A stretch of 58,285 bases of DNA from an uncultured Candidatus Saccharibacteria bacterium (lineage in GTDB: Bacteria; Patescibacteriota; Minisyncoccia; Phycocordibacterales; UBA2100), in NCBI GenBank assembly GCA_964462785.1, contig CAYWZA010000004.1, positions 1 through 58,285 on the forward strand, given 5' to 3'. Each line of letters begins with the position of its first letter. The first letter of the stretch is position 1. This document shows positions 4,854 through 50,111 of this stretch, piece by piece. The translations under genes were made by a program, and so were the position numbers. The notes under the pieces are model-generated. The model searched no databases and was not told where the DNA came from. It saw nothing but the letters and a program-made list of their open reading frames with translations.

Positions 4854-5615
4854 CTATGACGAACAACGGTTGAGCATGTGGTTGTATTGCAGCCGCAAAC
4901 ATTCCGCATCGGAATGGGACTGCGATACGACTTCCCCTTGCTCATTTAATGTAAAGCACTGGACGGGAACTTCTTGCCCTACCCATTCAAGCTTCACCTC
5001 CGTAGAAAGGATCTCTTTCGGTTTTTCTACGATGGATTCGACTCCTGCCGGATTTTTTTGCAGACGAATCCGCATCTTTACCGGGATCACCTTGAGCGAC
5101 GACCGATTGCCATAGAGATGTACGCTGACGCAATACGTCCCTGCGGGAAAACCGCGGCTGGTAGTCACCTCATAGTTCGCCGGATCCGCAAAGGGAATGC
5201 AGCCGGACATCATGGTGCTTGCCGTCTGGTAGATACAGCCCAAGTCATCTCGATTGTGGTCGAGTGTCTTGCTGTGTCCATTCGAGTACCCAACAGGCTT
5301 TTCAAGATCTTCGGCAAGACGCCCGCGGTATTGCACCCACAAGTCGACGTCCGTCCATATCAGATCCTGCTGACCTGTGGCTGTGTTTGTGACCTTGGGG
5401 TCAGTTACGTTCCAGTACGCCTCGAAAATAACGTTGCCCGGACTGACGGCAGCCAGGCTCGGATTTTCAACTTGCTTTTTTGGGTCGCTGACCGCGGCAA
5501 GCAAAGTGAGCATGAGTGCCGCAAACGCCACAATTGAAACGATGAGCATGTCGCGAATGGCGGTGTTGATACCGTCTCCCCCGAATGCGTCTTCCGACTC
5601 GTAGCTGTCCATCAT
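4854..5615 (-). CDS. single-pass membrane protein, possible ExbD/TolR/MotB-type partner with an unrecognised Cys-rich ectodomain
   Basis: The N-terminal TM helix is preceded by Asp (INTAIRDMLIVSIVAFAALMLTLLA), like the proton-relay Asp of ExbD/TolR/MotB. A ~190-aa ectodomain with 7 Cys follows. The gene sits 13 nt downstream of the MotA-like gene. Confidence 0.5.
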   Translation of the reverse strand: MMDSYESEDAFGGDGINTAIRDMLIVSIVAFAALMLTLLAAVSDPKKQVENPSLAAVSPGNVIFEAYWNVTDPKVTNTATGQQDLIWTDVDLWVQYRGRLAEDLEKPVGYSNGHSKTLDHNRDDLGCIYQTASTMMSGCIPFADPANYEVTTSRGFPAGTYCVSVHLYGNRSSLKVIPVKMRIRLQKNPAGVESIVEKPKEILSTEVKLEWVGQEVPVQCFTLNEQGEVVSQSHSDAECLRLQYNHMLNRCSS

Positions 5616-5628
5616 TGTGCGGGTCTCC

Positions 5629-6276
5629 TTATGTCTTGTGCTTGAGCGCCCGGAATATCCGGTGCTTCAAGTCGTATGCGCCACTTCTAGCGAAACGATA
5701 CATCTGGCGCACGATGGTATAGACAATGATACCAATCATTGATGTGCCGAAGAGCGCAAGATGCCGTGCCATCTCAGGCAATTTCGCCATCACGTCTTCG
5801 GGTTTGATTCCAGTGAGGACACCGAATGTTTGCGTTAGTCCGTCAATGGTACCGATGATGCCCACAATGACGGCGAGGTTGGCGATGTGCGCAAGCGTAT
5901 CAATATGCTTGCCCAGCGTATCGCGGACAATCTCCTTAAGGAGGTCTCTATCGTGATCCTTGTCTTCGACCAGCGGAAGTCCGAAGAGGTCTATGACCTC
6001 TGGCGAATCCATGCCACCTGGCCGCTTGACCGCATTGAGTCCTCGCGAAATTTTCCAAGTCACCCACAGACACTTTGCGCAAGCCGCCAAAAGAAGGACG
6101 GCAAAAGCAAGATTGTAATGAATCTTGAATGTTGCCAACCAATGCTCGATAATTCCCGCGTTCCACAGATACCCGAACAGGATAGCTGTGGCCATGATGA
6201 GTAGCAACGCGTGGAAAAATTGACGGTAATCATGATCCTTGGTCTTTGCGACCGGACCAAGCTTGATCGCTACCAT
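5629..6276 (-). CDS. MotA/TolQ/ExbB-family proton-channel protein
   Basis: Four hydrophobic helices. Signature LAVIVGIIGTIDGLTQTF ... HLALFGTSMIGIIVYTI matches the GLLGTVxGMxxxF / ALxTTxxGL core of the family. Confidence 0.65.
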   Translation of the reverse strand: MVAIKLGPVAKTKDHDYRQFFHALLLIMATAILFGYLWNAGIIEHWLATFKIHYNLAFAVLLLAACAKCLWVTWKISRGLNAVKRPGGMDSPEVIDLFGLPLVEDKDHDRDLLKEIVRDTLGKHIDTLAHIANLAVIVGIIGTIDGLTQTFGVLTGIKPEDVMAKLPEMARHLALFGTSMIGIIVYTIVRQMYRFARSGAYDLKHRIFRALKHKT

Positions 6277-6543
6277 TTCGAAAATCTCCTCTATGTAACT
6301 GCTAATCTGCAGCGATGCCTCGTTTTGTTATATGCCTCATGGGAGGGGGTGTCAATGGATTTACTGCCTCGACCCCCATGCATTGACCATATATGTGATC
6401 CGTGTTAGATTTGCCCTATCGGGTTTGACTCCGATATGCAGGCGGTTTTTGAAAGAAGCCGTACAGCAGCGTAAAGAAGAAAAAGAGTCGGTTTTTTCAA
6501 GACGTTTGCACTAAAGCATTTTTACGAACTAGCACAATTGAAC

Positions 6544-6744
6544 ATGAGTTCAGGAACAATTGCCCGCCTCACGGATCGTGGTTACGGCTTCATTAAGCCA
6601 GATGGTGGAGAGAAAGATCTCTTCTTCCATGCCAAGGATCTCCAGGAAGTGCGCTACGACGATCTGCGCGAGGGAGACAAAGTCTCTTTCGAGATCGCCG
6701 AGAGCCCAAAGGGCCCGAACGCAGTTAGCGTTCGCCGTGGTTAA
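6544..6744 (+). CDS. cold-shock protein (CspA family)
   Basis: GTIARLTDRGYGFIKPDGGEKDLFFHAKDL carries the RNP1/RNP2-like cold-shock-domain motifs. About 66 aa. Confidence 0.9.
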   Translation: MSSGTIARLTDRGYGFIKPDGGEKDLFFHAKDLQEVRYDDLREGDKVSFEIAESPKGPNAVSVRRG

Positions 6745-6753
6745 TCCGCGGTC

Positions 6754-6791
6754 AAAACAAAAACAGCGCCTCACGGCGCTGTTTTTGTTTT
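6754..6791 (+). terminator. intrinsic (bidirectional-looking) terminator after csp
   Basis: 17-bp stem aaaacaaaaacagcgcc/ggcgctgtttttgtttt with loop tcac. Confidence 0.7.
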
Positions 6792-6797
6792 CGGCAC

Positions 6798-6918
6798 TGC
6801 AGGCAGTGGGGTGAGGTCTAAGCGCGCATGCACGCGTGTTGAGACAGCGCAGTGGTGATACTGCCCGAAGTTACCAAAAGCGATACTGTGAGCGAAGACC
6901 TGCACCCCTCTGCCTGCA
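6798..6918 (+). ncRNA. candidate structured RNA, unclassified motif, copy A
   Basis: A ~22-bp closing stem (6798-6819 / 6896-6918) has a bulged G. It encloses a core that is near-identical to 33550-33607. Stem sequences differ between copies but both pair. G-U pairs favour the plus strand. Confidence 0.4.
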
Positions 6919-6938
6919 TCAGCAGAACAAGAACCCCG

Positions 6939-7601
6939 TTACCAATCTATCGGCTTCTCGCCATGCTCTTTCAGGTATGCATTGGCTTTGCTGAAATGCT
7001 TGTTGCCAAAAAAGCCGCTCGCGGCAGAGAAGGGTGACGGATGCGCGCTCTCGAGCACGCAGTGCTTGCTGCGATCAATGTGCGCGCCTTTTTGTTTTGC
7101 ATAATTTCCCCAGAGCATGAACACGAGATGTTCGCGCTCGCTCGACAACGCGCGCACCACAGCGTCGGTGAATTGCTCCCATCCCTTTCCTTGATGACTT
7201 CCCGCCTGCGATGCACACACGGTCAACGTTGCGTTCAAAAGCAGCACGCCTTGCTTTGCCCAATGCAAAAGATTCGCATCCGCGTGCGCCGCGCGCCCCA
7301 GATCGCTTGCAATTTCCTTGAAAATATTTTGAAGCGATGGGGGAGTCGCGACGCCGTCATCAACAGCAAAGCAGAGCCCATTCGCCTGCCCCGCTCCGTG
7401 ATACGGATCCTGCCCGAGGATAACCACCTTCACCTGATCAAATGGGCACATATCGAACGCCCGAAAAATGCGCTTGGGCGGTGGAAATACTACCCCGCGT
7501 GCATACTCCTTTTTTACAAATGCGCTGAGGGTCGGAAAATACGGCTCCTCAAATTCTCGCGCTAACTGCTCATGCCATGACGGTTCGATCTTGATTGTCA
7601 T
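6939..7601 (-). CDS. ung: uracil-DNA glycosylase (family 1)
   Basis: VVILGQDPYHGAGQANGLCFAV and HPSPFSA motifs. The start is set at MTIKIEPSW. The ORF is open to 7730. Confidence 0.9.
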   Translation of the reverse strand: MTIKIEPSWHEQLAREFEEPYFPTLSAFVKKEYARGVVFPPPKRIFRAFDMCPFDQVKVVILGQDPYHGAGQANGLCFAVDDGVATPPSLQNIFKEIASDLGRAAHADANLLHWAKQGVLLLNATLTVCASQAGSHQGKGWEQFTDAVVRALSSEREHLVFMLWGNYAKQKGAHIDRSKHCVLESAHPSPFSAASGFFGNKHFSKANAYLKEHGEKPIDW

Positions 7602-7703
7602 GATGCGATGGTAGCACACCCCTACACCATGTGTGTGTTGCAGTGCGTTGTCGAGCAACCTGTGGCATGCTATAGAGCAGATAGATAAGCATAGGAGCAA
7701 CTC

Positions 7704-8195
7704 GTGGGCGGGAAACGTACTGACAGCCACCGCATCTACTCTGAATCAGAGCTCGCGGTGCGATTAAAATCGGGCACACTTAATACGCATCATCCGCTGC
7801 CGCAAAGCAGGTGGGATCGTAAAAGCAAGAACGACACCGTCGAGCTTAACGTGCATTTGCATACCGTACTGTGGCACGGCCAACTCTTCAGCAACATGAT
7901 TGCCCGGGAGGTCGCGACGCAATTGACAGTGTGGTGGAAAGAGGGGCATATCTTCCTCGGCAACAAGCGCAAGGGAAAATTTTACTGCGGCTATACCGCG
8001 CCTGGCACGCTTGATGAGCAGTGGCGTCGTCCGGAGATCAAACTTTCGATGACGCGGGATCAGGTCGAAGCATTCAATCACCTTTTTGGTCTTCGTACTG
8101 ACCCGGCCGTGATTGAAAAAATTCTCAACAAATATTTTTTGCATCCTACAACCCCCGTACAACTCATTCCCTCGTGGAGCTTCTGGAGCCGCTAG
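7704..8195 (+). CDS. hypothetical protein
   Basis: 163-aa ORF with a GTG start. Third-position GC is ~63% here versus ~53% for the exactly antisense ORF 7764-8198. It is divergent from ung. No family recognised. Confidence 0.4.
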   Translation: MGGKRTDSHRIYSESELAVRLKSGTLNTHHPLPQSRWDRKSKNDTVELNVHLHTVLWHGQLFSNMIAREVATQLTVWWKEGHIFLGNKRKGKFYCGYTAPGTLDEQWRRPEIKLSMTRDQVEAFNHLFGLRTDPAVIEKILNKYFLHPTTPVQLIPSWSFWSR

Positions 8196-9493: not shown

Positions 9494-10750
9494 ATGAAAA
9501 AGAAAGCGCTTTCGACCGAGAGCTATAAGGGCGTCCGCGATTTCTATCCGGAAGATCAATTCATACAGGAGTATCTGTTTGAAACCATGACAAACGTGTG
9601 TGAGCGCTTCGGCTACGAATCATACAACGCGAGCATCCTCGAGCCCGCCGAGCTGTATCGCGGCAAGACGAGCGAGGAGATTGTGAACGAGCAGACATAC
9701 ACATTCACCGACCGCGGTGATCGCGAGGTGACGCTCCGCCCCGAGATGACCCCGACCGCCGCGCGCATGGTCGCGCACAAGCGACACGACCTCGTCTTTC
9801 CGCTACGCTGGTACACTATCGCAAACGTCTTCCGCTATGAGCGACCGCAGCGCGGTCGCCTCCGTGAGCACTGGCAGCTCAATGCCGATATCTTTGGCGC
9901 AACGGGAATAGAAGCTGAAGCGGAAATAATCGCCCTCGCCCACCAGATCATGCTCGACATTGGTGCCACCGAGCACGACTTCGAAATTCGCGTCAGCGAT
10001 CGCACGCTGCTCAACGCTATTTTCGAAGGCTGCGCACTTGCCGATGACGAGCGCCGCCGCGTCACGCGCCTTCTCGACAAGCGCGACGAGATGGAAGATT
10101 TCCGTGCCGCCGTGATGAAGGTTGTCTCCGCAGAAAAAGCCGACGCATTGCTCGACGGGCTTTCGCGCGCAAGCTCAAATGCACATCTCGAAGAATTGCT
10201 GAGTTTGCTCTACAAGCTCGGCATCACCAATGTGCATATCGACACTGGCATCGTGCGCGGATTTGATTACTACACCGGTATGGTGTTTGAAGTCTTCGAC
10301 ACTGCCGCGCAAAACACACGATCAATTTTTGGCGGAGGTCGCTACGACAATCTTCTTGCCATGTTCGACCAAGAGCCCGTTCCCGCAGTCGGGTTTGGTA
10401 TGGGTGATGTGACCGCGCGCGATTTTCTCGAAACGCACGGCCTTTTGCCACGCTACATGCCCGCGACCGAGCTCATGCTTTGCGTCATGGATGCAAAGCA
10501 TACCGCGCATGCGATGAAACTCGCTCAAGATTTACGCCGCGAGGACGTCGCCGTCGCAGTCAATTTTTCAGGCAAGCGCATCGGCGATCAAGTAAAGCAG
10601 GCCGATAAGCTCGGCATTCCGTTCATCGTCGCTATTGGCGACAAAGAGCGCGATTCAGGCCAATACACACTGAAGCACCTCCCGACTGGCAACGAATTCA
10701 TCCTCCCCGCCGAAAACATCCCCTCCCACATGCTCTCGGCGCTGGGCTAA
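9494..10750 (+). CDS. hisS: histidine--tRNA ligase
   Basis: 418 aa. N-terminal GVRDFYPED, class II motifs (RYERPQRGRLREHWQ, GGGRYDNL) and a C-terminal anticodon-binding domain. Confidence 0.95.
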   Translation: MKKKALSTESYKGVRDFYPEDQFIQEYLFETMTNVCERFGYESYNASILEPAELYRGKTSEEIVNEQTYTFTDRGDREVTLRPEMTPTAARMVAHKRHDLVFPLRWYTIANVFRYERPQRGRLREHWQLNADIFGATGIEAEAEIIALAHQIMLDIGATEHDFEIRVSDRTLLNAIFEGCALADDERRRVTRLLDKRDEMEDFRAAVMKVVSAEKADALLDGLSRASSNAHLEELLSLLYKLGITNVHIDTGIVRGFDYYTGMVFEVFDTAAQNTRSIFGGGRYDNLLAMFDQEPVPAVGFGMGDVTARDFLETHGLLPRYMPATELMLCVMDAKHTAHAMKLAQDLRREDVAVAVNFSGKRIGDQVKQADKLGIPFIVAIGDKERDSGQYTLKHLPTGNEFILPAENIPSHMLSALG

Positions 10751-13118: not shown

Positions 13119-13817
13119 ATGGACACCATGCAAAGACTCGCCGTACCGCTCGCTATCGTCGTCGCCGGAGCACTCATCGCCGTCGCCCTTTATTTCTCAA
13201 ATCAGAATCGTGTTGCCGGTCCTACGGGAAATGAGCAGCGGCCGACCGTCGCGGAAGATATACGCGGTGTCCAGAAGGACGATCATGTCCGCGGCAATCC
13301 AAACGCAGAGCTCGTCATCGTTGAATATTCAGACACCGAATGCCCCTTCTGCAAAAATTTCCACAACACAATGAAGCAGGTGATTGATACTTACGGTGCT
13401 GATGGAAAGGTGGCATGGGTGTATCGCCATTTCCCGCTCGCCCAGCTCCATCCGAAAGCTCCGCACGAAGCGGTGGCGCTTGAATGCGCAGCTGAGCTCG
13501 GCGGCAATGAAGGCTTCTGGAAATACACGGATAAAATTTATGCAGTGACGCCATCCAATAATGGGCTCGATACCGCGCAGCTTCCGGTGATCGCCGAGCA
13601 GGTTGGTCTCGATAAGGCTGCCTTCACCACCTGTCTCGAGAGCGATAAGCATAAGGCACGCGTCGACAAAGACATGGCAGAGGCAGTCGCAGCCGGCGGG
13701 CAGGGCACGCCGCATTCGATCATCATCTTCGGTGGCGAGCAGCTTCCGATTGAGGGCGCACAACCATTCGAAGTCGTGAAGAACATGATTGATACGTTGC
13801 TTGCCGGGCAGGAATAG
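13119..13817 (+). CDS. DsbA-family thiol:disulfide oxidoreductase, membrane-anchored
   Basis: N-terminal TM helix and a thioredoxin-fold CPFC active site (YSDTECPFCKNFH). Confidence 0.8.
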   Translation: MDTMQRLAVPLAIVVAGALIAVALYFSNQNRVAGPTGNEQRPTVAEDIRGVQKDDHVRGNPNAELVIVEYSDTECPFCKNFHNTMKQVIDTYGADGKVAWVYRHFPLAQLHPKAPHEAVALECAAELGGNEGFWKYTDKIYAVTPSNNGLDTAQLPVIAEQVGLDKAAFTTCLESDKHKARVDKDMAEAVAAGGQGTPHSIIIFGGEQLPIEGAQPFEVVKNMIDTLLAGQE

Positions 13818-16714: not shown

Positions 16715-20395
<3,681 letters not shown>

Positions 20396-33441: not shown

Positions 33442-33624
33442 GCGCCGGTTGGCATGTGGTCTGAGTGAGCATCGCGCACCACGGGGTACTTCTTGTTTTC
33501 TAATTAGTCATAAGAAAACAATGTCGCAGCGTGTATACATGCGTGCCTTGCCAGCGCAGTGGTGATACAGTCCGAAGTTACCAAAAGCTATCAGGCTCCC
33601 GAAGACCAGCATGCCAACCGGCGC
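33442..33624 (+). ncRNA. candidate structured RNA, unclassified motif, copy B
   Basis: A 21-bp closing stem (33442-33462 / 33603-33624) has a bulged G at the same position as copy A. The conserved core is CAGCGCAGTGGTGATAC..CCGAAGTTACCAAAAGC. An extra 9-bp hairpin insertion lies at 33494-33522. Confidence 0.4.
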
Positions 33625-33630
33625 GCTGCT

Positions 33631-34122
33631 TCAGAGTACGTCTGCTAAATCAACCAGATCGCTCGCGTTCACGTTGCGCTCTTCCACAAAGCCACTGCGC
33701 GTCTCGAGCACATAACGCGCCGGCGCGCGCGGGGTGAATACTTGCGGGAATGATTCGGGCGTCGCATGTTGCACGATATCGATAATGCGCCCTTCCGCAT
33801 CTATCCAGATAATGTCGATAGCAAATTTCATGTCTTTCATCCAGATGCCGTAGGTATCGTCTTGATCAAACACAAAGAGCATACCGGTGCCGGGAGGTAA
33901 CCGATTGAAAACGGAAAGTCCTTTCTGCTGCTCTTCCGGCGTGTCGGCTATATACACCCGCACCGGCACCCCGCCTATGTGCGCAATAGGCAAATATGTC
34001 CCCTGCGGTGTGTACGGCAACAGCACCGGATCATTCGTGCCCCACGAAAGGTATATCAATCCGCCCATCAGCATCAAAAGCCCCGTCGCAAACACCGTCA
34101 TCCGCATGCCGAGATGGTTCAT
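33631..34122 (-). CDS. DUF192-family protein (secreted/anchored)
   Basis: ADTPEEQQKGLS ... GMLFVF ... IWMKDMKFAIDIIWID is typical of DUF192. An N-terminal hydrophobic segment is present. Confidence 0.72.
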   Translation of the reverse strand: MNHLGMRMTVFATGLLMLMGGLIYLSWGTNDPVLLPYTPQGTYLPIAHIGGVPVRVYIADTPEEQQKGLSVFNRLPPGTGMLFVFDQDDTYGIWMKDMKFAIDIIWIDAEGRIIDIVQHATPESFPQVFTPRAPARYVLETRSGFVEERNVNASDLVDLADVL

Positions 34123-48473: not shown

Positions 48474-50111
48474 ATGCTCAAACCAAAATATTTTCTATAC
48501 GCGCGCAAATCTACAGAGGACGACGACCGCCAAGTGATGAGCATCGAAGCACAGCTTTTTGAGCTTCGAGAGTATGCGCGCAAAGAAAATCTTGAAATCC
48601 TAGCGGAGTTTCAAGAGTCGAAAAGCGCAAAGACCCCAGGGCGAGAGATTTTTGGTGAACTGATGGCTCAGGTTGAGCGAAGTGAAGGTGTAGGTATCTT
48701 GGCGTGGCATCCCGACCGATTGGCTCGTAACTCCATCGACGGCGGCCGCATCGTGTATGGCGTGGACACCCGAAAGATTGTGTCTTTGCGTTTTCCGACA
48801 TTTTGGTTTGAGCCTACCCCGCAGGGTCTATTCATGTTGCAAGTGGCGTTTGGGCAATCTAAATATTATTCAGACAATCTATCGGAAAACATCAAGCGCG
48901 GCGTCCGCCAGAAACTGCGTCGAGGCGAATGGTTGAATCGTGCTCCCTTTGGCTACCAAAACAACCCCCGTATTCGCAATATCGAGCCACATCCTACAAA
49001 CGCACGGATTGTGAAAATAGCGTACGAAGAATACGCCAAAGGGACGCATGCGCTCGTCTCTCTGGCGCAGTTTCTGGCGGACTTGGGCGTGTTTACGAAA
49101 AACGGGACGCCACTTGCCAAAATTTCCATCAAAAGGATGCTCACGCACCGGGTATATCTCGGATTCGTGAAGCATGGGACGGAATGGTTTGATGGAAATT
49201 TTGAACCGATCCTTTCTCCCGCTTTGTTTGAAGCCGTGCAGAGCATTGTCAGTGGCAAGGCGCGGCCTCGCCATCGCAAAATCAAGCACGATTTTCCGCT
49301 CACCGACCTCTTCCGCTGTGCTGAGTGCAGCGGCATGATTTCCGCCCAATGGGCAACTGGAAAGAGTGGTGGACGATATCGCTACTATCGTTGCTCCAAA
49401 AAGCGCGGCCGCTGCACCCAACCGTATGTGCAGGAGTCGGAGCTTGCAGACAAAATACGGGCACGGCTTCAAACAATCTCGCTTTCCGATCGCTACACCG
49501 ACCACATGCTCAAAATGGTGGATGAGTCGGAGAAAACAGACAAAACAGCGTCGCAAAGCGAGATTCACCATCTTTCTTCTCGAATCAAAGCGGACGAGGG
49601 GCGCATGGAAAAATTGGTGTCGGCGTATTTGGACAACGACGTACCGAAAGACATCTATCTAAAGCGCAAGGACACGATCATGCGCTCACTCGCCGCTTTG
49701 CGGGAAGAACTGAAAGATGTTGAACGCGGGAGAAAGAATCGGGTCGAACCCTTGCGGGCGTTCGTTCTCGACTTGAAACAAGCCAATGTTCTCTCCTCGT
49801 CTGAGGATTTGCATGAAATCAAGAGTTTCGTCAAAAAAATCGGAACGAACCCCATTTTGCGAAACAAAACACCCCACCTTTCTTTTCCCTCACCCTATCA
49901 ATTCGTCGCGCAGCGACGCCACCTTTTGCCGCCACCCCCTGCCGCGTCGCTTCGCGACGCCGCGCTCACGGCGGGTGAAGTTTCTATCTGCGGAGAGAGA
50001 GGGATTCGAACCCTCGATCCGGTTTCCCGGATGCATGCTTTCCAAGCATGTGCTTTCGACCACTCAGCCATCTCTCCACTCTTTATAAACGGAACCGATG
50101 CGGTCATTTGA
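48474..50111 (+). CDS. large serine recombinase
   Basis: N-terminal resolvase domain (YARKSTEDDDRQVMSIEAQ), recombinase domain, Zn-ribbon CAECSG...YYRCSKKRGRC and a coiled-coil. The last ~83 codons run through repeat R2 and antisense to tRNA-Ser. Confidence 0.85.
   Translation: MLKPKYFLYARKSTEDDDRQVMSIEAQLFELREYARKENLEILAEFQESKSAKTPGREIFGELMAQVERSEGVGILAWHPDRLARNSIDGGRIVYGVDTRKIVSLRFPTFWFEPTPQGLFMLQVAFGQSKYYSDNLSENIKRGVRQKLRRGEWLNRAPFGYQNNPRIRNIEPHPTNARIVKIAYEEYAKGTHALVSLAQFLADLGVFTKNGTPLAKISIKRMLTHRVYLGFVKHGTEWFDGNFEPILSPALFEAVQSIVSGKARPRHRKIKHDFPLTDLFRCAECSGMISAQWATGKSGGRYRYYRCSKKRGRCTQPYVQESELADKIRARLQTISLSDRYTDHMLKMVDESEKTDKTASQSEIHHLSSRIKADEGRMEKLVSAYLDNDVPKDIYLKRKDTIMRSLAALREELKDVERGRKNRVEPLRAFVLDLKQANVLSSSEDLHEIKSFVKKIGTNPILRNKTPHLSFPSPYQFVAQRRHLLPPPPAASLRDAALTAGEVSICGERGIRTLDPVSRMHAFQACAFDHSAISPLFINGTDAVI
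49860..49993 (-). repeat. 134-bp perfect inverted repeat, copy 2 (R2, inverted)
   Basis: Exact reverse complement of 48326-48459. Its last 3 nt overlap the 3' end of tRNA-Ser. Confidence 0.95.
49991..50077 (-). tRNA. tRNA-Ser (anticodon GGA)
   Basis: 87 nt. Acceptor stem GGAGAGA/UCUCUCC, anticodon arm CAUGC-UUGGAAA-GCAUG, long variable arm UCCGG-GAAA-CCGGA, T arm GAGGG-UUCGAAU-CCCUC, discriminator G. No CCA is encoded. Confidence 0.9.

Follow-up and report, generated by a model that had tools for sequence, protein, structure and literature searches.

A ~130-base hairpin repeat of Patescibacteria with copy-specific arms and a conserved loop, a putative mobile palindromic DNA element

The window analysed here, a stretch of 58,285 nucleotides from an uncultured Candidatus Saccharibacteria bacterium, carries two copies of a ~130-base hairpin repeat of Patescibacteria that is apparently undescribed; literature searches returned no description of such an element. 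A profile search of the genome's own contigs (983 kb (0.98 Mb) in 39 contigs, 52% GC, 95.8% complete) recovered 13 copies; the two copies proposed by a first-pass annotation of the window, here called A and B, are real, and their number was too low. The reading we favour, with some reserve, is that of a palindromic DNA element which moves, or formerly moved, non-autonomously. It would be REPIN/REP-like with an inverted architecture and served by a putative mobilising enzyme. This reading draws on a pattern of 13, three and no copies in the window's genome and its two congeners, on empty sites, on the copying of whole hairpins and on the replacement of arms. Movement as DNA is further suggested by a Watson-Crick stem that lacks RNA-type wobble, by the lack of a conserved internal fold and by the location of all copies, which are intergenic and stand behind unrelated housekeeping genes.

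Regular copies in the window's genome measure 121-137 nt and follow one plan. The closing stem P1 comprises 18-30 bp, of which the outer ~15 bp differ in most copies, while the inner ~6 bp (AGGTCT/AGACC) are semi-conserved within this genome. A short helix, P2, covaries as GAAC/GTTC, GAGC/GCTC or AAAC/GTTT, and the loop of ~85 nt holds two conserved boxes, TCGCGCAGC (box A) and AGTGGTGATA (box B). Box A, in full (A/C)TCGCGCAGC, lies directly 3' of P2; box B, (C/T)AGT(A/G)G, lies mid-loop and is usually followed by TGATA, and GTTCG stands just 5' of the 3' arm. Among 66 copies, box A reads TCGCGCAG in 47 and is present in degenerate form in 57, and box B reads AGTGGTGAT in 33 and AGT[AG]G in 60. 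Both boxes are conserved across genomes whose coding DNA is only ~65-75% identical. The coordinates of the two copies in the window and of their neighbours are collected in the table.

Table. Features of the two hairpin copies in the window and of the adjoining genes
Feature	Position	Strand	Basis or remark
Copy A, hairpin element	6798..6918	+ (= family-model orientation)	Covariance-model hit, 63.7 bits, E 9e-10
Copy A, 5' arm	6798..6819	+	Arm alignment; outer ~16 nt copy-specific, inner AGGTCT semi-conserved among this genome's copies
Copy A, 3' arm	6896..6918	+	Bulged G at 6902; inner AGACCT semi-conserved
Copy A, box B, CAGTGGTGATA	6850..6860	+	Motif counts over 66 copies and alignment
Bidirectional terminator hairpin, 17 bp perfect	6754..6791	.	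Behind cold-shock gene (6538-6744); adjoins copy A, not part of the element
UDG-family (uracil-DNA-glycosylase) gene	6939..7730	-	ORF; Pfam UDG 3.2e-17
Copy B, whole hairpin element	33442..33624	+	Covariance-model hit, 83.7 bits
Copy B, 5' arm	33442..33462	+	Arm alignment
Copy B, 3' arm	33603..33624	+	Bulged G at 33609, same register as in copy A
Copy B, box A, CATCGCGCA	33470..33478	+	Motif counts over 66 copies
Copy B, core insertion, ~50 nt	about 33479..33528	+	Own small hairpin inside
Copy B, box B	33557..33567	+	Alignment
DUF192 gene	33631..34122	-	Stop codon 6 nt from copy B 3' arm

The stem is preserved as a stem and not as a sequence. Pairing is seen in 94.3% of the stem cells of the 10 regular copies (70% in shuffles), and 21 of 25 stem pairs change on both sides, a level reached by none of 500 shuffles; when the partner is slid by 1-3 columns, pairing falls to 27-54%. 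A chance origin of the paired stems is excluded. A covariance model built from the family (R1) was used for the search of relatives, and 45 homologs were compared in a model-based alignment; MAFFT alone left the arms unaligned. The search did bring further homologs whose closing stems covary, which bears out the initial proposal that a hairpin is conserved and that this is no plain sequence repeat. A scan of the whole genome for inverted repeats whose arms match perfectly over 12 nt or more, with spacers of 30-260 nt, counted 87, against 7 in a shuffled genome.

The arm pairing proposed for copy A in the first-pass annotation, ~22 bp with one mismatch and a bulged G on the 3' strand, holds to the base: the stem has 22 pairs and a single T.T mismatch, and the bulged G lies at the exact junction of the copy-specific outer stem and the semi-conserved inner stem (AGACCT). 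Folded as RNA, the + strand of this copy reaches -62 kcal/mol (z -6.5) and the - strand -59.8 kcal/mol (z -5.9), values attained by 0 of 200 shuffles in either case. Copy A is itself an atypical, deleted variant, without ~12 nt of the family's 5' box A (AGCATCGCGCAG). It follows the UDG-family gene in antisense orientation, 20 nt from the stop codon to the 3' arm. Contigs from four groundwater DNA runs over 6200-7600 contain no joint across copy A, a result that is in itself uninformative, and a metagenome scan for a strain-level empty site, with the two flanks joined within 0-30 nt, found none. In congener G001 a contig (C42) ends at 17331, right after the cold-shock gene, where the window's genome carries copy A; the break was possibly caused by the repeat.

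Copy B had been placed at 33550-33607 and its core called near-identical to that of copy A. The position is right, and the span is only part of an element that occupies the whole of 33442-33624; the central ~38 nt are indeed nearly identical, and over the full span the agreement is 44 of 59. The outer arms of the two copies are unrelated in sequence and each pair is nonetheless complementary, with the bulged G in the same register, both as first described. The ~50-nt insertion in the core of copy B recurs in another copy of the same genome (contig C20, 18945-19137). Elsewhere in the window, inverted-repeat pairs in the serine-integrase gene region of an island (48903-49476) recur in opposite order on contig C9 (28829-29402), so that a second copy of that segment exists in the assembly.

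No known RNA family accounts for the element. At gathering score, Rfam 15 reports only a tRNA (49991-50077) in the window, and an E-value scan of 12 element loci gave only spurious miRNA-precursor matches of 24-30 bits against cut-offs of 80-330, in agreement with the first description, which had matched the motif to no known family. The motif is also non-coding, as had been supposed: it is ORF-less and 0 of 66 copies lie credibly inside a gene. A long open frame runs through two of the 66; one of these frames overlaps a tRNA gene, and in the other the element length is not a multiple of three. With 0 of 66 credible cases, an in-frame intragenic repeat of the Rickettsia palindromic element type was rejected.

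Whether the hairpin acts as RNA or as DNA is addressed by its mismatches and its internal fold. An RNA helix under selection is expected to show an excess of G.U pairs on the transcribed strand. In the + orientation, the closing stems of the 45 homologs, many of them perfect, contain 1033 Watson-Crick pairs, 20 G.T, 18 A.C and 40 other mismatches; G.T is about as frequent as A.C and there is no wobble asymmetry, so the mismatches look like fresh, strand-blind mutations. Within the loop, RNAalifold on the model-based alignment keeps only P1 and 2 bp of P2, and the best helix that box B can form with sequence downstream of it has a mean length of 6.1 bp (shuffles, 5.8). The internal helices GGUGA/UUACC and GCGCG/CGCGU that had been drawn for copy A are not conserved across the family, and GGUGA/UUACC is no better than in shuffles. 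A candidate pairing of box A with box B, ATCGC(G)CA with TGGTGAT, involves nearly invariant letters and does not covary, the box B variants AGTAGATGTGA, AGTAGTGGAAAA and AGTAATGC being uncompensated in box A. Neither of the generic marks of a structured RNA, covarying helices beyond the closing stem and a wobble bias on one strand, was observed, and conservation resides in the sequence boxes and not in an internal RNA fold. The earlier interpretation as a structured RNA of the + strand has accordingly become doubtful, also because ~24 of 45 copies would be co-transcribed as its reverse complement; given the patchy distribution and the empty orthologous sites, mobile DNA fits better than a dedicated RNA gene.

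It is against this background that independent small RNA genes on the + strand, in which the stem would be a mere scaffold and the loop boxes the functional part, appear quite improbable. Such genes would agree with the conservation of the boxes between distant genomes, with a box A-box B pairing that needs G.U on the + strand and in which C-to-T variants keep U.G, and with the slightly better folding of that strand (more stable in 42 of 66 copies, mean difference -2.5 kcal/mol). Yet this pairing is nearly invariant and its box B variants go uncompensated, there is no conserved internal helix, no promoter or terminator could be placed, Rfam holds nothing similar, and a patchy, multi-copy pattern of gain and loss would be unusual for a functional small RNA.

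Nine of the 13 copies in the window's genome, and ~24 of 45 overall, adjoin the 3' end of an opposite-strand gene, with its stop codon no more than ~35 nt away, and only ~6 of 45 stand behind a gene that runs in their own sense. In the direction of the mRNA, the distance from stop codon to hairpin is 0-11 nt in 16 or more of the 45 copies, and four hairpins begin at the very last base of the stop codon; at least four of the 13 copies here depart from the antisense-behind-stop arrangement. Since the element is mostly antisense to the preceding gene, any co-transcribed RNA would be the reverse complement of the + strand. The preceding genes are unrelated housekeeping genes (TyrRS, L11, Hsp20, trigger factor, UvrB, UDG family, DUF192, SLOG), and one copy in the window's genome sits inside an operon, between rplK and rplA. 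The same spacer in the two congeners, G001 (C54, about 13414-13563; L105) and G002 (C10, just below 52813; L106), holds hairpin elements of ~135-150 nt right after the rplK stop, with arms of 15-19 bp and cores unrelated to the family. On contig C21 of the window's genome, between the uvrB stop and the family copy at 9719-9850, another small hairpin, CCTGACAGG-TTTAA-CTGTCAGG (L044, about 1455-1490), stands beside the element; it is similar to the CCCGACAGTC palindromes on either side of Y1-like genes in a relative, G096.

Simple terminators and tRNA-derived elements were considered for this position and set aside. The window's genome has 83 plain perfect hairpins, many of them terminators with A/T tracts 1-20 nt after stop codons. 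A T-run after the stem is absent on either strand in the 13 copies, and the true terminators of this genome do have A/T tracts; the missing U-tract rules out an intrinsic (Rho-independent) terminator. No tRNA gene lies within the ~270-300 nt flanks of the 13 copies and the arms have no third genomic copy, which disposes of a tRNA-linked element whose stem derives from tRNA 3' ends.

At this position the element could also act in cis on mRNA 3' ends, as an RNA module whose transcript would be the reverse complement of the + strand. Such a module would block 3' exonucleases, serve as a site for RNase III or other processing, or act as a terminator without a U-tract, its boxes being bound by protein. 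We regard this as unlikely, although the tight spacing behind stop codons, the orientation bias (~24 against ~6) and the presence of other long hairpins in exactly the rplK-rplA spacer of both congeners would fit a selected role at mRNA 3' ends as well as they fit mobile DNA, and the plain terminator hairpins of this genome share the same position class. The element is, on the other hand, dispensable, G002 having no copy and its orthologous genes doing without; the genes served are unrelated and number only 1-14 per genome; neither strand has a U-tract after the hairpin. Nor does the mRNA-sense strand show an excess of G.U (18 against 20), and in minimum free energy the other strand is slightly the better one in the 42 of 66 copies already mentioned; the copies here outside the antisense-behind-stop arrangement also speak against it.

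The distribution of the element among relatives is patchy. With model R1, three copies were found in congener G001 and none in congener G002, which is 96% complete. Matches occurred in 43 of 150 genomes of the same family (1-14 in each, ~100 further copies), mostly within one genus (41 of 116), and in 0 of 24 genomes from other families of the same order. An exact-pattern scan of 185,579 species genomes, with an over-strict pattern, gave two true matches and seven chance matches that the model rejected.

Comparison of syntenic loci reveals empty sites in both directions. The loci of copies A and B are syntenic in G002 and there lack the element together with both arms, and one of the G001 copies (L035) is absent from the syntenic site in the window's genome. 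This copy and another in G001 (L029) have common arms and flanks that differ immediately outside them; the arms resemble those of copy A at 16 of 21 positions, and all five differences are compensated. In G096, one arm sequence occurs at no fewer than eight loci, always ~102 nt from its partner and always with a core, and two copies have cores 99% identical. Common arms with differing flanks, and an arm that recurs with its core, mark the whole hairpin as the unit of copying. In the window's genome the cores are only 72-81% identical, so that nothing there shows recent movement. Some copies cluster 2-5 kb apart. Species of the genus of G096 are only 64-75% identical in DNA, too distant for comparison of intergenic empty sites. 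A different repeat of G096 (C1, L125:2026-2203), whose copies in G096 and G127 are 84-97% identical where coding DNA is ~65-70% identical, may be a recently exchanged mobile element.

In some pairs of copies within one genome, cores that are 0.90-0.96 identical carry arms that are 0.45-0.62 identical, shuffled arms giving 0.49 +/- 0.09, and arm pairs of unrelated sequence on such like cores remain almost perfectly complementary. With like cores and random arms, point mutation plus compensation cannot be the source of the new stems; the pattern points either to homogenisation of cores by gene conversion or to wholesale renewal of arms. The G096 subfamily behaves otherwise, its arms and core drifting at similar rates: single changes in the arms stand uncompensated, and one copy shows four double changes. 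No arm of this subfamily was found without a core. A short-word BLAST of 26 arms against the window's genome returned only the partner of each arm and no third copy, and two perfect arms searched against viral contigs gave 0 and 2 exact 18-19-mer matches, judged to be about the chance level from a rough estimate of the size of the collection. Insertion into the loops of terminators, at least in its simple form, is not supported, the arms of the 13 copies being without A/T tracts and the G096 arm being confined to loci with the core.

It is tempting, if improbable, to suppose that the arms are made by a templated DNA-copying step within the life cycle of the element. The conserved P2 (GAAC/GTTC) at the base of the core would then act as a snap-back primer-template junction, from which a polymerase would copy the neighbouring ~20 nt into an inverted duplicate and so give each new or renewed copy a perfect stem of its own. 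If this were true, it would be a way of transposing or of self-repair as yet undescribed in bacterial repeats, shared by several unrelated core families in Patescibacteria.

The search for a mobilising enzyme gave no clear candidate. The window's genome has no Y1/HUH transposase (PF01797). Y1-like genes are frequent in the family at large, in 126 of 151 genomes and with up to 16 per genome, and they are found in 40 of 44 genomes with the element against 86 of 107 without; absent here and uncorrelated with the element across the family, a Y1/HUH transposase was rejected as the mobiliser. One Y1-like gene in G096 was inspected (C1, L125; a 233-aa Y1_Tnp-like ORF at 4917-5618). It is bracketed by CCCGACAGTC palindromes at 4892-4914 and 5616-5665, one of them a perfect 50-bp palindrome, an arrangement as found for a RAYT and its own REP; the gene is thus flanked by a different palindrome and not, as a RAYT of the present element would be, by the element itself.

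Tyrosine recombinases are represented by one Xer-like gene per genome, which is not near the element. This bears on a further alternative, a recombination site folded from single-stranded DNA, of the attC or CTX-phage attP hairpin type, on which an Xer-like or other enzyme would act. Several features recall such sites: a structure conserved without its stem sequence, an extrahelical G at a fixed position in several copies, a location directly behind ORF stop codons as in attC, and copies 2-5 kb apart; some copies in genus g5 also have short direct boxes, AGCGAG / CGAGCG, outside the arms. All the same, we hold this to be the least probable of the alternatives and a most improbable one: the ends carry no R''/R' boxes as in the attC consensus, conservation is central and not terminal, the preceding genes belong to conserved core operons rather than cassettes, and there are neither arrays nor an integron-type integrase nearby, only the single Xer-like gene.

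We return to mobile DNA, for which the following cycle may be proposed. The copied unit is the whole hairpin, with the closing stem, the P2 helix and the loop with boxes A and B; the boxes together with the hairpin base would be the parts recognised by the mobilising enzyme. Of the outer stem nothing more would be required than a perfect duplex, which would probably form in a cruciform or in single-stranded DNA that has folded. Occasionally a copy would gain a wholly new pair of arms and retain its core. A templated copying step could achieve this by rebuilding one arm on the pattern of its partner or of flanking DNA; the same result could follow if the element inserted into a palindrome already present, or if its core underwent gene conversion. 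Copies would persist only in harmless places, immediately behind stop codons, and would there be passively co-transcribed as a 3' hairpin. What counts against such mobility is that no mobiliser was found, that Y1 genes do not track the element and that the cores in the window's genome have diverged as far as they have; in addition, the arms of 45 copies are flanked by no target-site duplication of consistent length and end in no conserved terminal repeat.

The family is not the only one of its kind in this genome. Other core families account for at least 20 more long-hairpin elements, which measure about 90-180 nt and have arms of 14-30 perfect bp and spacers of 53-146 nt; examples lie at C11:20023-20191, C7:4538-4662, C14:11495-11622, C3:51035-51157, C17:3375-3501, C35:4305-4421 and C2:57233-57351. 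One such family, with the core CCGTATTGAATATACGG, likewise has copy-specific arms, another has conserved arms (ATCCCGTTAGAAAT) in 3 copies, and in some elements the arms resemble tRNA T-arms. Perfect palindromes of two families, GTATACCCCCACACCAA... and ...CGAGTAAAT..., are found near gene starts and ends (C9:24426-24471, C20:14645-14690, C23:14990-15035, C16:62-109, C7:38791-38834, C7:19977-20014, C6:54175-54210 and C10:4347-4382) and may be operator-like sites.

A tiny, tightly packed Patescibacteria genome nonetheless carries 13 copies of one hairpin family and at least 20 other long hairpins. An explanation of how stems remain perfect although their sequence changes wholly might bring to light a novel means by which DNA is moved or repaired; should the RNA reading hold, it might instead show how mRNA 3' ends are shaped in a novel manner across a huge and uncultured section of the bacterial tree. 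Model R1 is also of practical use, since it flags repeats that cause contig breaks and false "novel ncRNA" calls in CPR genomes.

Among known systems, integron sites share with the element a conserved hairpin of variable stem sequence, an extrahelical base and a site right after a stop codon. The attC consensus places R''/R' boxes, RYYYAAC ... GTTRRRY, at the outer ends, and attC sites combine these conserved outer R boxes with a variable centre and with cassette arrays beside intI. Neither conserved outer boxes nor cassette arrays are seen here, and with outer ends unrelated between copies, housekeeping neighbours and an Xer-like recombinase encoded elsewhere, identity with integron attC was rejected.

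MITEs and the Correia, ERIC, RUP and BOX repeats are small non-coding intergenic repeats with terminal inverted repeats that are often co-transcribed (reviewed in PMC3184786). The present element is likewise a small non-coding intergenic repeat with terminal inverted repeats. MITEs, however, have family-specific termini that are read by a transposase, and target-site duplications, whereas here the termini are copy-specific, with only the inner ~6 bp semi-conserved, and there is no duplication of fixed length, so that the element is not a MITE.

The closest precedent is provided by REPINs, short ORF-less extragenic hairpins of ~100 nt with compensatory changes on both sides, which are thought to move as folded single-stranded DNA by means of a RAYT, a Y1 transposase (Bertels & Rainey 2011, PMC3116915), and which thereby offer a model for mobile hairpins with compensatory changes. 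The Patescibacteria element resembles them as an ORF-less, extragenic long hairpin with multiple copies per genome and compensatory stem changes, and differs from them in three respects. REPINs have conserved ends (REP 16-mers) and a varying middle, whereas in the present element it is the middle that is conserved, with ends specific to each copy; REPINs number hundreds of copies, against 13 in this genome and 1-14 matches in each related one; and the REPIN/RAYT pair includes a cognate Y1 gene, in contrast to the lack of PF01797 in the window's genome and of any correlation with Y1 genes in relatives. Arms that are not inverted REP copies and differ between most copies, together with the lack of a cognate RAYT, exclude identity with REP/REPIN. 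The REP/REPIN, MITE and attC models are all based on conserved ends, and a conserved loop inside a stem that appears to be renewed copy by copy fits none of them.
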